A DNA stretch of 64,000 nt. It comes from Patescibacteria group bacterium (GTDB lineage Bacteria; Patescibacteriota; Patescibacteriia; 2-01-FULL-39-33). The translations under genes were made by a program, and so were the position numbers. The notes under the pieces were generated by a model, which was given only the letters and a program-made list of their open reading frames with translations, searched no databases and was not told the DNA's origin. Positions within the stretch are counted from its first letter, which is position 1. Each line of letters opens with the position of its first letter. This document shows positions 10,901 through 41,170 of this stretch, piece after piece. Location: assembly GCA_041650895.1 (NCBI GenBank), contig JBAZKF010000001.1:509006-573005 (forward strand). The letters are read 5' to 3'.

Positions 10901-13900
10901 TCATTCTTCGTTTCCTAGGTCAATCTGAGGAGCGGCGGCAACCGTTACTGTTGTTGATCCATTGCCTATTTGACCCGATCCCGTAGCAGTCAATTCACCG
11001 ATCACCGACATTATCTCCGGATTAGACGGTTCTCCGGCCATGGGATTTGCTGGTTGGATTGTTCCCATACCTTTAGAACCAGCCGTTCCATTTGCTCCCA
11101 AAACGACCGGTGGACCGATAACCCCAGTAACCGACAACGGGGTAGAACTAACAAAAAACGGATCGCTACCGGAAGAGTCAGCTGTTGTTGAGGAGTTATT
11201 TTGTAAAAAAATCGGCGAACTACTGCTTAAAACAATATTCATTTCATCATTAACAACTATATCACCCAAGTCGTCGGTATTATTATCTGAAGTCTCATCA
11301 TCGCTTTTAACCGCCAGAGCATGCCAATTAAATCTCATCTCCTCTGTAAACGGCAGATCGACTGCAACAATAAAGCCGGTGGAGCTTTGCGCTTCTATCC
11401 AATAATCATGCCCGGAAACATTAAGTAAGGGGGTCAGCGTGATTATCGGATCAACATCATAGGGCTTAGCAAAATGAACAGCGGTAGAGGTTGCACCGGC
11501 AGACAACTTAACTGTGCCAGCCGCATCCTTATCCAAATAAATATGATCCTTAAACACCACCTTTGATTCAAATCCTGCTTCGCCGATAACTGTGATGGTA
11601 CCGTAAAAAGTGGCTGAAGAATTTACCGCTAATGAATCCAATACTTCTAAATCATCAAGCGGAGAGTCGTCAACAACTAAGGCCGACTCAGTGCTGGAAG
11701 CGATAATTCCGGATAATTGAGCGGACAGAACCCCAAGTTCTTGCTCCTGACGCTGAGCAACCTGCAATAAATAAAATGGCAGATGGTCGGCGCGATAGCC
11801 CTTGGTTCGGCCGTCATCAAGATATAATTCCGGCAAAGCATCTCTGATTTCTTCGGCGATCAAACCAAAGTCAGTCTGCCCGGTCTGTTTCCAGATAAAC
11901 GATTTGACTTGCAATCCCAATAAAGCGTCGATATTCAAGCTAGTATCAATGATATCATCTTTATACTCTCGAGATGACGGATTAACATTAGTCAAAGTTC
12001 CGTTATTGGAATAAACAGCGCCATTGGTATCTAAGGTGGAAATATTTACGGTTTTAGCTTCAGCATCAAAGGTAACAAAAGGCAGACCGTCATTATAATC
12101 AAGCCATTGATAACTTTTAGCGCTATCAAAAGACAATAACTCAGTTGAGGTAGTAAAATAAATATCCGCAGCCGACGAAAAATCTGAGGCAAAAAAGCTA
12201 ACATGAGCATCACGATTAGTTGAGAAAACTGCGAGATGATCTTTTATACCCACTAAATCCATATCGGATCCAAAAACAGCAGAAGTAGAAGCATGACCGG
12301 AAATCATTGGAACATCCATGAGGCCTTTATTTATATAGAACTTGAGCCCATAATTGCCATCATTTGTGAGTTGGAGCCAATCATTAGGCGATGTAACGGT
12401 TAATTTATGAGTTGGGGTAGTGGTGACAACACCAATGGTCGTAGTAGAATTTAGATTCGTCTCACCGGCAACCTTAAGCCCGCCACTGCCGATTATCACT
12501 CCGAAAAACTTGCCCAAACCGACGGTTATCAAATCCCTTAACACCTGTAAACCGCCAGACACTAACGAGCCAACCCTGGCGGTCGGCGTATCCAATCCCG
12601 GAAGCTTTATAATCACTAACCTATTGGGGCTTACAGACAATGGCAAATAAGCCCTGTTCCCGGAGACTTCCACTCCCCAAGGATTGCCCAAGGTGCTGAT
12701 TGAATCAACAAAATACGGATTATACGGGTCAGAAATGTTAATAATTTTCAAAGCTGCACCCTTATTATCAACAACATAAGCATAATCACCTTGAACCGAT
12801 AAGCCGGTAGATCCTGAAAAATCATTTATATCCTTGTAAAATTCCAACTGAGACCCTCCAACAATTACCGGATTAGTGGAAGAAGAAATGTCAATAATCC
12901 TAAATACCTCGGTAGAAGTGACCCCAATGTCTATAGGCGGTCCAAAGCAGTCATGAGTGGTATAAGCATAACTACCCTTAACAACCACATCCCGGCCTAA
13001 CGGCGGCATATCCAATAAATCACCGCCAACAACAATCGGATTAACCGGATCAGAAATATCAACGATCCTGAATACATTAGTTGAAGTAGCAACATAACTG
13101 ACGGTGTAGGCGTATTTTCCCTGAACATCAATGCCCCGAGTCTCACCGGGGAAATTAGTAACGGGATTACTGATTCTCCTTGGCTTGGAAGGATTAGACA
13201 CATTGATGATTTGCAAACCATCTTCACCGGTTAAGAGACTGGAGTAATAAGCGGTATAAAGCAAACCGTCTATGACTTTTAATTTTCTTAAAGCATAATT
13301 AGCGATATAATCTTCTCCAACCTTTTCCACTGGATTAGTCGGATCGGAAATATCCAAAATAGATAAAGTATTAGTGCTTTGATAAGAGTACTCCTCAAAT
13401 CCGATATAAGCGTATTTCCCATCAATATCAATGCATCTGGCTCCCAAACCGGCACCCGGCCTCAAAGCAAAACTATCATTTACTATAATCGGATTATCAG
13501 GATTGGAAATATCAAAAATTCTTAACTTGTTAGTAGAGGTCGGAGATTGTAATACTACATAGAGATAATCGCCATAAACCATGGAGTTAGATGCCCCGCC
13601 ATGAACTTCTGGCAAAGAAGTAGTAACATAACTTGGAGCTGAATAAAGCAAAGTGGAAGTAGCAATTTTTAGGTTAGAAAGATAAGGCGAAGAAGTCACA
13701 CCGACCAAGCCATTAGTTGCCTGTAAAACTCCGTTTAAACTGCCAATGGTAAGGTCGCCAGAAAGATAAGGCGAAGAAGTCACACCGACCAAGCCATTAG
13801 TAGCTTGCAGGATGCCGTTTAGACTGCCAACGACTAAATTAGTAGTAGTAGTGATTCCCGCTACCTGCAAATCTCCACCAAAGTAATTCTTGCCATTTGT

Positions 13901-36933: not shown

Positions 36934-37965
36934 TTATATAAATTTCTCCTGAAGATTAACCGGCGGGGTAGCGCCCAAATGCCGATAAGCCTCTTCAGCT
37001 AAAACACGTCCGCGGGAAGTGCGGTTAATGAACCCCAATTGCAACAAAAACGGTTCAATCACATCTTCAATCGTATCCATATCCTCGGACAAGGCCGCGG
37101 AAATAGTGTTCAAACCGACCGGACCGCCATTAAACTTTTCTAATAACAATTTCAAATACAAATGATCGACATGATCCAATCCTAATTCATCAACCTCTAA
37201 AAGCTTCAAGGCCTCATTGGCCGTCTCTTCATTAATTTTACCATCTTTCTTGACTTGGGCAAAATCACGAACGCGCTTGAGCAACCGATTGGCGATACGC
37301 GGAGTCTGACGAGCGCGGCCGGCAATAATCCCTCTGGCTGTTTCATCCATTTCAATTGACAATATCTTGGCGGCCCGGGAAATGATTTCGCCGATTTCTT
37401 GTTTGTTATAAAAATTCAAACGGAAAACATTACCGAAGCGATCGCGCAAAGGCGAAGACAGACCACTGATCTTGGTGGTTGCTCCGACCAAAGTGAATTT
37501 AGGCAGATTAAGCCGCAAAGTCCGAGCCGACGGTCCTTTGCCGATGACAATATCCAAGGCGTAATCCTCCATAGCCGGATACAACACTTCTTCAATGGAC
37601 TTGTTTAGACGATGAATTTCATCCACAAACAGAATATCACCTTCATTAAGATTGGTCAGAATCGCCGCCAAATCACCGGTACGCTCAATCGCCGGACCGG
37701 AAGTTATTTTGATGTTGGCGTCCATCTCATTGGCGATAATATGCGCCAAAGTCGTCTTGCCCAACCCCGGAGGACCAAAAATCAAAACATGCTCCAGGGG
37801 TTCCTCCCTGGTTTTGGCCGCCTCCATAAAAATCTGTAAATTATCTTTGACCGCCTGCTGGCCGACATATTCGCCCAACGATTTAGGGCGCAAAGTCAAG
37901 TCCAAAACAGTGTCATTGCCGTCGTCTTGAGCGGCAATTACGCGGTCCTCCGCTATTTCTGCCAT
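36934..37965 (-). CDS. ruvB: Holliday junction branch migration ATPase
   Basis: Walker [19 protein letters not shown], Walker [11 protein letters not shown], and a RuvB C-terminal winged helix. Confidence 0.95.
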
Positions 37966-38137
37966 ATGGCATTATCTTAACACAAATAACCTAAAAGCCA
38001 AAACTTCATATTAGTCTCTTGACAGAAGAATTAAAGTATGATAAGATGATGAATCATCAATTATGATGAGTCGCACATTGATTTATCGGCAGTTGGCCAA
38101 AACCAAAACCGCCCCAAGGGGCAAGAAAGGAAAAACG

Positions 38138-38704
38138 ATGACCATTAAAGACCTGAAGAATAAAGCTCTACTGCAAGAACTACTGAACAATCCGGAGCTT
38201 TTGGATAATTTAATAACCGATTTGTCACGGTTAATCAGACGCGAGATCTTGAACCTGACCCCGATAATGGAAAAAGTTGGTTCTTTGGTTGGAGAAGCAT
38301 CTGATGATATTGTTCCGCCTATTACGGACATACTGAATGAACTATTGCCAGCAATTTGCGGTATCGGTGGCACAGCCATAGTAAAAATGAATCCCAGCAT
38401 CATCGCCTTGATTGAGTTCTTCCTGAACGAAATGGTTGATGTCAGCGAGGGCATTGAAGAAGCGCAAGGACGACTCTTCAATGCGCGGGCGCGCCTGAGG
38501 AAAGCACAACTTTACGCATACCTGCATACCGGCGACTTCAATCGTTCCGAAGCTATGGCGCTGGTTCTGGCGGATATGGGCTCAGGCAGTATCATGCCTT
38601 CCGCCAACGAATTCATGCAGGGAGCCAAACAGGGAGCCGAAGCGATCAAAGGCATAGGCGGCAAGGTTAGAGCCGCACACCGTGGCCTATCCCAAAAAGA
38701 GTAA
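38138..38704 (+). CDS. hypothetical protein
   Basis: SD AAAGGAAAAACG precedes the ATG at 38138. 188 aa with no recognisable motif. Confidence 0.45.
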   Translation: MTIKDLKNKALLQELLNNPELLDNLITDLSRLIRREILNLTPIMEKVGSLVGEASDDIVPPITDILNELLPAICGIGGTAIVKMNPSIIALIEFFLNEMVDVSEGIEEAQGRLFNARARLRKAQLYAYLHTGDFNRSEAMALVLADMGSGSIMPSANEFMQGAKQGAEAIKGIGGKVRAAHRGLSQKE

Positions 38705-38728
38705 AAAAGTAACTATAAATCAAACGCA

Positions 38729-38910
38729 CCATACGGAAGCCGCTGGCTTCCGTTTTTATTTTTCAAGCTTTTTACTCCAAATTGCACCAAGTACTTGACA
38801 AAAAGTCAAAAATAACATACCATACGGAAGCCGCTGGCTTCCGTTTTTATTTTTCAAGCTTTTTACTCCAAATTGCACCAAGTACTTGACAAAAAGTCAA
38901 AAATAACATA
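38729..38910 (+). repeat. perfect tandem duplication, 2 x 91 bp, each = terminator hairpin + promoter-like module
   Basis: CCATACGGAAGCCGCTGGCTTCCGTTTTTATTTTTCAAGC...TTGACAAAAAGTCAAAAATAACATA is repeated exactly (38729-38819 and 38820-38910). Confidence 0.85.
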
Positions 38911-38914
38911 TGAT
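38886..38914 (+). promoter_or_regulatory. sigma70-type promoter (TTGACA-17-TATGAT), created at the junction of the second repeat copy
   Basis: ttgaca aaaagtcaaaaataaca tatgat. The first copy has TACCAT instead of a -10 box. Confidence 0.5.
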
Positions 38915-39136
38915 TAACTGATTTAGAACTTTAAAAATTTAAAGGAAACTAAAGGAACACAAAAATCCAAAAGGTAAGGAGCGCGGAATAATGGATAAAA
39001 AGGGAAGAAAAGGAGAAGGAAGAAAGAGAGAATGGATTTCGGCTAAACGGAAAAATAAAAGACCCAAACCAAAGCACCCGGCGGCGGCCATGAAAAAAGC
39101 CAAACGCTACCAACCAAGATAGGGAGAATAACAACT

Positions 39137-39376
39137 ATGCCGAAAGACCAGTCGCCCCAAGAGACCGACCCGATCAGGCAGATCATGGCCGATATGAATA
39201 AAGAAAGATGCCCGGCTTGCGGTGGCACCGGCAGAAAACGCAACTTGGAAGACCCTTATAACCGCAATCAGGCCGACAGCGTATGCCCGACCTGCGGCGG
39301 TAGTGGCAGTAAAGCCACAATCAAAGCCAAACTGGTCAGACCGGTGGCGACGAGACCCCACAAAACACCGGGCTGA
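39137..39376 (+). CDS. small zinc-ribbon protein with two DnaJ-type CxxCxGxG motifs
   Basis: CPACGGTGRK and CPTCGGSGSK motifs. SD AGGGAG upstream. 79 aa. Confidence 0.5.
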   Translation: MPKDQSPQETDPIRQIMADMNKERCPACGGTGRKRNLEDPYNRNQADSVCPTCGGSGSKATIKAKLVRPVATRPHKTPG

Positions 39377-39400
39377 AATCCGGCCGAATAGTACTTTATA

Positions 39401-39430
39401 CCCCAACCGACGAGTTGGGGTTTTATTTTT
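39401..39430 (+). terminator. rho-independent terminator
   Basis: ccccaac-cgacga-gttgggg stem followed by ttttattttt. Confidence 0.65.
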
Positions 39431-39448: not shown

Positions 39449-39477
39449 TTGACAGCTTTTTATCATTACGCTATATT
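39449..39477 (+). promoter_or_regulatory. sigma70-type promoter of the hrcA operon (TTGACA-17-TATATT)
   Basis: ttgaca gctttttatcattacgc tatatt, immediately 5' of the CIRCE element. Confidence 0.6.
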
Positions 39478-39481
39478 TAAA

Positions 39482-39508
39482 TTAGCACTCTCGCTATTAG
39501 AGTGCTAA
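39482..39508 (+). promoter_or_regulatory. CIRCE operator (HrcA binding site)
   Basis: TTAGCACTC-tcgctatta-GAGTGCTAA is a perfect match to the CIRCE consensus TTAGCACTC-N9-GAGTGCTAA. Confidence 0.9.
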
Positions 39509-39536
39509 TAGCGAAAATACCTAATTTTAGCCACTT

Positions 39537-40229
39537 ATGGAGGCCAGACAGGAACAATTACTCAAAGCCATAGTTGATGAATACGTCAAAACCGCCCAGC
39601 CGGTCGGCTCTTCTCATTTGGTAGAAAAATATTTCCCTGATTTAAGCCCGGCCACCATTCGCAATGAATTGGCAGAACTGGAGAGCCAGGGCCTGATTTA
39701 TCAGCCCCACACCTCCGCCGGCCGAATCCCCACTATTCTGGGTTACCAGTACTATATCAATTATTTCGTCATTGACAGCCATATTTCCGCCAAGGACCGG
39801 CAAGAGTTAAGCGGCCTTAATCTAACCAAAAACCATGAAAGCATCAAAACCTTGGCTAAACAGCTTGCAGGCTTATCCGAACAGACTATTATAATCGCCT
39901 TCTCAGCTAATGATCTGTACTACACCGGCTTATCGCACTTGTTCCGTCAGCCGGAGTTCACCAACCTGTCCCTGGTTTGCACTATGTCCGACATTATTGA
40001 TAACCTGGATCGGGTGATCAATTGGTACTTTCCGCAGGCCGACGAAATGCCGCAAATATTAATCGGCGATACCTGTCCTTTCGGCCGCGACGCTTCAGCT
40101 ATTATCGCTTTGGCCGAATTATCAGGACAACCCTTAGTCATCAGTGTTCTAGGGCCCCTGCGCATGGATTATAAAAGAAACCTGGGACTGATAAAACACG
40201 CGCAAGAATTAATCAATAAAATTAATTAG
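39537..40229 (+). CDS. hrcA: heat-inducible transcription repressor HrcA (short form, 230 aa)
   Basis: N-terminal wHTH (RQEQLLKAIVDEYVKTAQPVGSSHL...ATIRNELAELE..G). It lies downstream of CIRCE and is followed by grpE. Confidence 0.85.
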   Translation: MEARQEQLLKAIVDEYVKTAQPVGSSHLVEKYFPDLSPATIRNELAELESQGLIYQPHTSAGRIPTILGYQYYINYFVIDSHISAKDRQELSGLNLTKNHESIKTLAKQLAGLSEQTIIIAFSANDLYYTGLSHLFRQPEFTNLSLVCTMSDIIDNLDRVINWYFPQADEMPQILIGDTCPFGRDASAIIALAELSGQPLVISVLGPLRMDYKRNLGLIKHAQELINKIN

Positions 40230-40239
40230 CACCTAACCT

Positions 40240-40719
40240 ATGTCCGAAGAACAATCCATTGAGCAGTTGCAAGAAGAACTGCTGAAAGAAAAGGAAAAAA
40301 ACGGCGAACTCCTGGCTGGCTGGCAAAGAGCCAAAGCCGATTACTTGAATCTGAAAAAAGATGAAGAAAAAAAGGCCAAAGAAACTTACGAGTGGGCCAA
40401 CGCCGCGTTTATGTCCGAGGTTCTGCCTGTTTATTCCCATTTCAAGCTGGCCTTGCAACATATTCCTGAAGATCAGAAAAAGGTACCTTGGGTGGAAGGC
40501 GTGATTTTTATCCAAAAAACTTTCCAGGATTTTTTTAAAAAATATCAAATAGAAGAAATCAAAACTAACGGCGAAAAATTCGATCCGAATCTGCATGAAG
40601 CCCTGACGCATGAAAAAAAAGACGGCTATGAACCGGATATGATTTTTGAGGAAGTGGCGCCGGGCTATCTCTTAGACGGCAAAGTGCTTCTGCCGGCCAA
40701 AGTTAAAGTAGCCAAATAA
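40240..40719 (+). CDS. grpE: nucleotide exchange factor GrpE
   Basis: Coiled-coil N-terminus with RAKADYLNLKK and a C-terminal beta-domain (LLDGKVLLPAKVKV). Confidence 0.9.
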   Translation: MSEEQSIEQLQEELLKEKEKNGELLAGWQRAKADYLNLKKDEEKKAKETYEWANAAFMSEVLPVYSHFKLALQHIPEDQKKVPWVEGVIFIQKTFQDFFKKYQIEEIKTNGEKFDPNLHEALTHEKKDGYEPDMIFEEVAPGYLLDGKVLLPAKVKVAK

Positions 40720-40747: not shown

Positions 40748-41170
40748 ATGTCAATCATCAAATGGACACCTTTTCCCTTCGTCGATTCCTTTGACGAAGC
40801 GGAAAAACTAATGGGCGATTGGCCCATCACGGCCGGCTCTTTTACCCCGGCCATAGACGTTTACGAAGACAAAGACAACGTCGTAGTGGAAGCGCCACTG
40901 GCCGGCATTGACCCGGACAAAGTGGAAATCGCCATTGAAAACAACATCTTAACCATTAAAGGAGAAAACGAAAAGAAAACCGAAGTGGAAGACAAGAATT
41001 ACTACCGCAAAGAAGTGCGTACCGGATCTTTCTACCGTTCGGTGGCTCTGCCCTCCAAAGTGGAAAGCGATAAAGCCGAAGCCTCTTATGACAAGGGTAT
41101 CTTAAAAATCACTTTGCCCAAATTACCGGAAGCCAAACCCAAAACCATTAAGGTAAATATCGCCAAATAA
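40748..41170 (+). CDS. Hsp20/alpha-crystallin family small heat-shock protein
   Basis: ACD signature FTPAIDVYEDKDNVVVEAPLAGIDPDKVEIAIENNILTIKGE...FYRSVALP. Confidence 0.9.
   Translation: MSIIKWTPFPFVDSFDEAEKLMGDWPITAGSFTPAIDVYEDKDNVVVEAPLAGIDPDKVEIAIENNILTIKGENEKKTEVEDKNYYRKEVRTGSFYRSVALPSKVESDKAEASYDKGILKITLPKLPEAKPKTIKVNIAK

Follow-up and report, generated by a model that had tools for sequence, protein, structure and literature searches.

The spacer between a fast-evolving 213-aa gene (gene X) and a two-gene unit directly 5' of hrcA-grpE-hsp20-dnaK contains a 91-bp unit in two head-to-tail copies that do not differ at any base (38728-38910). The explanation that fits best, and that we regard as likely, is a real and recent slippage-type duplication of this native spacer, in which the promoter reading into the downstream genes is ancestral and the variant itself is probably near-neutral. 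The duplication doubles a predicted intrinsic terminator and, at its internal junction, forms a hybrid promoter-like site. All positions refer to the window, the whole 64-kb stretch of DNA analyzed, which belongs to a Patescibacteria (Buchananbacteria-like) MAG with a protein named WC473_02665 by NCBI and a longest contig of 957,791 bp.

The repeat and its gene neighborhood

Tandem Repeats Finder places the intergenic repeat at 38728..38910 (period 91, 2.0 copies, 100% matches, no indels, score 366), and direct string comparison shows that 38728-38818 equals 38819-38909 base for base. The A at 38910 is one extra shared base, which brings the total match to 183 bp. Copy 1 occupies 38728..38818 and copy 2, with the shared A, 38819..38910, both on the plus strand, with a breakpoint that is ambiguous by 1 nt. 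Identity breaks on both sides (C38727 vs T38818; T38911 vs C38820). The initial annotation, made from the sequence alone, had described two exact back-to-back copies, which both methods bear out. Its limits of 38729-38914 require correction, as the repeat starts one base away, at 38728, and what ends at 38914 is the -10 hexamer rather than the repeat. An exact repeat of 91 bp cannot have a chance origin. A 21-mer from the unit has no second match in the 64-kb window at ≤3 mismatches (0 expected), no further copies of the unit or of its hairpin were found in the window, and an exact 34-mer of the unit gave 0 matches in the metagenome contig collection. An exact-protein look-up of a spurious minus-strand ORF spanning the internal junction returned no record. 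Elsewhere in the window, a second long tandem repeat lies at 13676-13830 (period 84, 1.8 copies, 88% matches).

Upstream of the repeat, ruvB (36934-37965, minus strand) is followed by gene X (38063..38704, plus strand), which has no Pfam family. The annotated N-terminus of gene X is 25-50 aa longer than those of its relatives, and translation may really begin at the ATG of MTIKDLKN, ~38138. Homologues of gene X were found in two other lineages only: lineage B, represented by six contigs (L004, L005, L006, L009, L010 and L014; MAG SO_2017_GW1_156), and lineage C, represented by four (L007, L008, L013 and L017; Candidatus Buchananbacteria SO_2016_GW1_112). A protein-guided scan of genome contigs with gene X gave 163 pattern matches, none of them a relative. 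Both lineages share the synteny of the window: ruvB, X, small ORF, zinc finger, hrcA, grpE, hsp20 and dnaK.

The first gene downstream of the repeat is a 43-aa Lys/Arg-rich ORF (38991..39122, plus strand) with AAGGAG 9 nt upstream. It has 40-aa homologues in lineage B (L004 4068-4190, L009 570-692) and lineage C (L007 4735-4857), and all three lineages share this very basic 40-43 aa peptide, with KRPKPK.P..(A)MKKAKRYQP as its conserved C-terminal half; it has no Pfam match. In another assembly of the window lineage (L001, see below), a 37-bp deletion within this ORF (window ~39011-39047; L001 1038-1103) shifts the frame and leaves 21 aa, while the window and the Logan contig keep the full-length ORF. 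Either the micro-protein has been knocked out by a variant within the population, or the deletion points to an ORF that can be done without. The second gene of the unit encodes a 79-aa protein (39137..39376, plus strand) with two CXXCXGXG DnaJ-type zinc-finger motifs, which matches PF00684 with an E-value of 1.9e-6, below the gathering score. A terminator-like hairpin (39400-39421) lies 3' of this gene. The region upstream of hrcA (39449-39509) then presents a textbook TTGACA-17-TATATT promoter followed by the CIRCE inverted repeat TTAGCACTC-N9-GAGTGCTAA (39481-39509), from which it follows that this Patescibacteria genome has the classical heat-shock circuit of HrcA and CIRCE. The heat-shock genes follow as hrcA (39537-40229), grpE (40240-40719), hsp20 (40748-41170) and dnaK (from 42012).

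Exact-protein look-ups recovered two further assemblies of the window lineage. The first is L001, a 3.4-kb JGI contig from sample 3300037067, which carries two exact copies of the unit in mid-contig. A landfill virome paper traces this sample to leachate well LW3 at a landfill in Southern Ontario, sampled in 2017. L001 differs from the window by the 37-bp deletion further downstream and is therefore a separate assembly. In the second, the Logan assembly of SRR8542065, the repeat region is split over two contigs. L002 stops at window position 38757, after exactly the first 30 nt of the repeat, and L019 (the same contig as L003) picks up at 38881, with exactly 30 nt of repeat ahead of the first unique base. 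Contig breaks 30 nt inside the borders of a repeat are the mark that a tandem-repeat loop leaves in a de Bruijn graph with k=31, and such a loop calls for junction k-mers among the reads. The structure thus reads as at least two copies, not exactly two, since an assembler traverses such a loop minimally. The DNA behind the three assemblies is close to clonal, with ≤1 mismatch in 3.4 kb, and probably stems from one landfill site, which makes the three independent assemblies, not independent populations. Look-ups of HrcA gave no additional contigs of the window lineage, and an exact-protein look-up of RuvB returned no record.

Terminators and promoters in the duplicated spacer

Each copy of the unit contains the hairpin ACGGAAGCC-GCT-GGCTTCCGT followed by the T-run TTTTTATTTTT. 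Terminator T1 spans 38733..38763 (hairpin 38733-38753, 9 pairs of which 6 are G-C, 3-nt loop), and its duplicate T2, of the same sequence, spans 38824..38854, both on the plus strand. The RNA hairpin folds at -14.6 kcal/mol (z = -5.6 vs shuffles). T1 lies 28 nt 3' of the stop codon of gene X (TAA, 38702-38704) on the same strand. The hairpin is kept in L004, L009 and L007 with 9-10 pairs and changed loops (TTA or TCG vs GCT in the window), and a single G-U pair distinguishes lineage C. A G+C-rich hairpin, a U-tract, a position after the stop codon and conservation are thus all found, as expected from the sequence of an intrinsic (Rho-independent) terminator. This agrees with the initial annotation, which had assigned each copy such a terminator for the upstream gene. 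T1 and T2 are the predicted ends of the gene X transcript, and read-through from gene X would now face two identical predicted terminators in series.

Each copy also contains a TTGACA -35 box, and the combination TTGACA-17-TATGAT is present only after copy 2. It defines promoter P (38886..38914, plus strand), a predicted sigma-70-type promoter with 11/12 consensus matches and an inferred start at ~38921. These elements had been described correctly, as a consensus -35 box in each copy and a TATGAT at 17 nt after the downstream copy only, but the promoter does not, as was claimed alongside, owe its origin to the second junction. At the homologous site, the single-copy relatives already carry TTGACA-17-TATAAT (L007) or TACAAT (L004 and L009), so P predates the duplication; judged from these orthologous spacers, P is ancestral. 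TTGACA, the -10 bases TA..AT (T1, A2, A5 and T6) and the 3' part of the spacer (CAAAAATAACA) are invariant across the three lineages on which this conservation argument rests, and the -10 hexamer varies at positions 3 and 4 only (TG, CA or TA). Variation limited to these two positions is the expected pattern of a working sigma-70-type promoter. The assignment of P to this class accordingly draws on near-consensus hexamers, a 17-nt spacer and the conservation of the hexamers in orthologous spacers.

Folding of the 5' leader downstream of P (38921-38995) and of its orthologues stays at the level of shuffled sequences (z ~0 to 0.8), so nothing points to an RNA thermometer or riboswitch; Rfam found one tRNA only in the whole window. 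When two contig collections were searched for the conserved-promoter pattern, the only matches were the two known sister lineages and Clostridia sequences in unrelated contexts (metK, a hypothetical gene, a ParB-like methylase). One of these, TTGACAAAAAATCAAAAATAACATATGATTAA, matches the Patescibacteria promoter over 32 nt and occurs in Clostridium liquoris, Haloimpatiens lingqiaonensis and two metagenome contigs (L016 4431-4462; also L011, L012 and L018, with a weaker match in L015), 5' of a 197-aa hypothetical gene and beside a ParB-like DNA methylase. Here, A-rich promoters close to the consensus have probably converged.

The duplication added the internal junction with its hybrid TACCAT, not promoter P. 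At this junction, written as AAATAACAT|ACCATACGG, the end of copy 1 (...AAAATAACATA) is joined to the start of copy 2 (CCATACGG...), and the hybrid -10 hexamer stands at 17-nt spacing from the -35 box of copy 1. The resulting promoter-like site P' (TTGACA-17-TACCAT, 38795..38823, plus strand), absent from the initial annotation, has 10/12 matches, retains T1, A2, A5 and T6 of the -10 hexamer and has an inferred start at ~38830. This predicted start falls within the 5' arm of the T2 hairpin. An RNA beginning at 38830 keeps just a 3-bp stem (-2.5 kcal/mol vs -14.6 kcal/mol for the full hairpin), and with most of the stem lost, P' transcripts would escape T2. P' may serve as a weaker second promoter for the downstream genes and, if active, would lengthen their leader by 91 nt.

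Ancestral state and origin of the duplication

Lineages B and C have a single copy of the unit, which corresponds to their orthologous native spacer. Proteins of the window are close to those of the sister lineages (RuvB ~95%, HrcA 87-90%, GrpE ~91% and Hsp20 94-96% identity), and the whole spacer is ~85% identical to that of the relatives, similar to the neighboring housekeeping genes at the DNA level; the gene X protein is only 49-56% identical to its orthologues. From this comparison, the single-copy state is the ancestral one. The absence of divergence between the copies had been taken as a mark of a very recent duplication, a view that fits the data, as two sister lineages are single-copy. 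Lineage B possesses a tandem duplication of its own, a 20-bp segment (2.0 copies, 94% matches) over the -35 region of the same promoter (L004 3936-3974; also L005, L006, L009, L010 and L014), which reads TAAATGCCTGACAAAAAATG then TAAATGCTTGACAAAAAATC. This 20-bp duplication is older than the 91-bp duplication of the window and lacks a second -10.

The duplicated segment extends from 5 nt before the terminator hairpin to TA, the first two bases of the -10 hexamer, which places the right breakpoint inside that hexamer. The flanks are AACGC|A on the left and AACAT|A at the junction and the right end, with AAC..A in common. Exact microhomology amounts to 1 nt (A), and AACGCA and AACATA match at 4/6 positions; the relatives have AACGTA at the left flank, which would give 5/6 matches. 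The 37-bp deletion of L001, bounded by AAA, is another slippage-type variant in the same spacer.

Short tandem duplications in bacteria reportedly arise by slipped-strand mispairing or template switching at microhomologies. The 91-bp repeat resembles such events in its exact head-to-tail copies with nothing between them, in its partly similar short breakpoint sequences, in the single copy of its relatives and in the presence of more small duplications and deletions nearby. It differs in that the exact microhomology is so short and the longer match imperfect, and in that the mechanism is inferred from the product. Slippage is nonetheless a plausible origin on these sequence grounds. The ancestral spacer contained one predicted intrinsic terminator for gene X and one sigma-70-type promoter, TTGACA-17-TAYRAT. 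Most likely, replication slippage or template switching between AACGCA (left) and AACATA (right) then duplicated 91 bp, and the order is now X stop, T1, -35/spacer with TACCAT, T2, and -35/spacer with TATGAT. The net effect on the downstream genes would be small, and the copies could potentially revert by recombination between them.

Competing readings and wider meaning

A different reading sees the duplication as a selected cis-regulatory variant, in which the double terminator insulates the downstream genes from gene X, the tandem promoters P' and P raise their expression, and copy number perhaps acts as a population rheostat. If true, it would mean more of the basic micro-protein and of the DnaJ-type zinc-finger protein beside the heat-shock cluster. 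The consensus -35 box, 17-nt spacer and key -10 positions (TAnnnT) of P' speak for it, as do the removal of the T2 hairpin from RNAs starting at ~38830, the presence of the variant in 3/3 assemblies of the lineage and the independent duplication of the -35 region of the same promoter in lineage B. However, the lineage B duplication makes no second -10, and the near-clonality of the assemblies means that common presence says little about selection. Copy-number polymorphism was not seen either. The initial annotation had raised ongoing copy-number change as an option, but all three assemblies fit at least two copies, and there is no 1-copy or 3-copy assembly among them, minority alleles being invisible in assemblies. 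Zero divergence equally fits a young neutral variant. A selected variant is unlikely, with a small but real chance of being correct. Taken together with the near-clonal samples, the zero divergence makes a young near-neutral variant the simplest reading, and on this sequence evidence the duplication is probably near-neutral.

A perfect inverted repeat, TTGAC-AAAAA-GTCAA, overlaps the -35 box of P (38886..38900) and recurs in copy 1 (38795-38809); both sites read TTGACAAAAAGTCAA, with 5-nt arms around AAAAA and zero mismatches. Were TTGAC-N5-GTCAA the operator of a dimeric regulator, the duplication would double the operator and alter repression downstream, and majority rule over the three lineages does suggest that the perfect palindrome is ancestral. 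Yet its left arm is explained by the plain -35 consensus, and its right arm varies, from GTCAA to ATCAA in L004 and L009 (lineage B) and to GCCAA in L007 (lineage C). These two right-arm bases (GT to AT, GT to GC) are the sole variable positions of the -35/spacer region in the relatives, so that the half-sites are not both conserved. Within the 64-kb window, the exact palindrome occurs in the two repeat copies only, and one-mismatch matches are at chance level (5 vs 1.8 expected; 8/100 shuffles reach 5). No regulator gene adjoins the spacer, and HrcA has its own CIRCE site. The palindrome noted by the initial annotation is thus present as a 15-bp sequence, but its role as a functional element is not supported, and an operator has only a faint chance of being the right reading. 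The defining features of an operator array, like those of a mobile element, were looked for in the window and the relatives and not found.

Assembly errors are known to arise at tandem repeats shorter than a read pair, and the exact copy number is unreadable from short-read assemblies, two points that speak for an assembly or scaffolding artefact. Against this, the same structure appears in the 958-kb MAG contig, in the middle of the JGI contig and in the k=31 contig breaks of the Logan assembly. Moreover, 91 is an unusual k-mer size, and the repeat lies far from contig ends. At the assembly level, the two copies of L001 and the loop-type breaks of Logan answer the proposal to look for an artefact with a negative result, and on the sequences at hand an artefact is very unlikely, fainter still than an operator. 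Insertion of a small mobile or interspersed repeat (MITE or REP type) beside its own copy has next to no chance of being correct, because the unit, although it contains a hairpin like REP elements, is the orthologous native spacer of single-copy relatives, has no terminal inverted repeats and no target-site duplication, and has neither another copy in the window nor an exact match in the metagenome collection.

A recent slippage-type duplication of the native spacer, the preferred reading, can be set beside known arrangements of repeated signals. It resembles tandem terminators and tandem promoters, both natural and engineered, which are familiar from Escherichia coli as rrnB T1-T2 and rrn P1-P2. 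The window similarly has two predicted terminators serially after one gene, and two promoter-like sites ~90 bp apart lead into one downstream unit. Unlike the E. coli pairs, those of the window are sequence-identical and both derive from one recent duplication, their function is predicted, the upstream promoter has a hybrid -10, and a terminator stands between the two promoters. In the spacers of Neisseria porA and opc, homopolymer tracts act as phase-variable (contingency) promoter repeats. The 91-bp repeat likewise lies inside a promoter, and its copy number could alter promoter geometry. However, its unit is 91 bp vs 1-9 bp, it has two copies in assemblies, variation in copy number was not seen, and the native distance between -35 and -10 is unchanged. 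At the level of the three assemblies, nothing marks the 91-bp repeat as a phase-variable tract. A literature search for close precedents of the duplication found nothing specific.

The duplication adds one more example of a familiar type of mutation, which here has hit two well-known signals, an intrinsic terminator and a sigma-70-type promoter, and its significance beyond this genome is small. It provides a clean natural case in which one small duplication doubles a predicted terminator and, with its breakpoint inside the -10, makes a hybrid candidate for a second promoter, while single-copy sister species supply the ancestral state. It also shows that this Patescibacteria genus has conserved promoters of the canonical TTGACA/TATAAT type and terminators of the hairpin-plus-U type.
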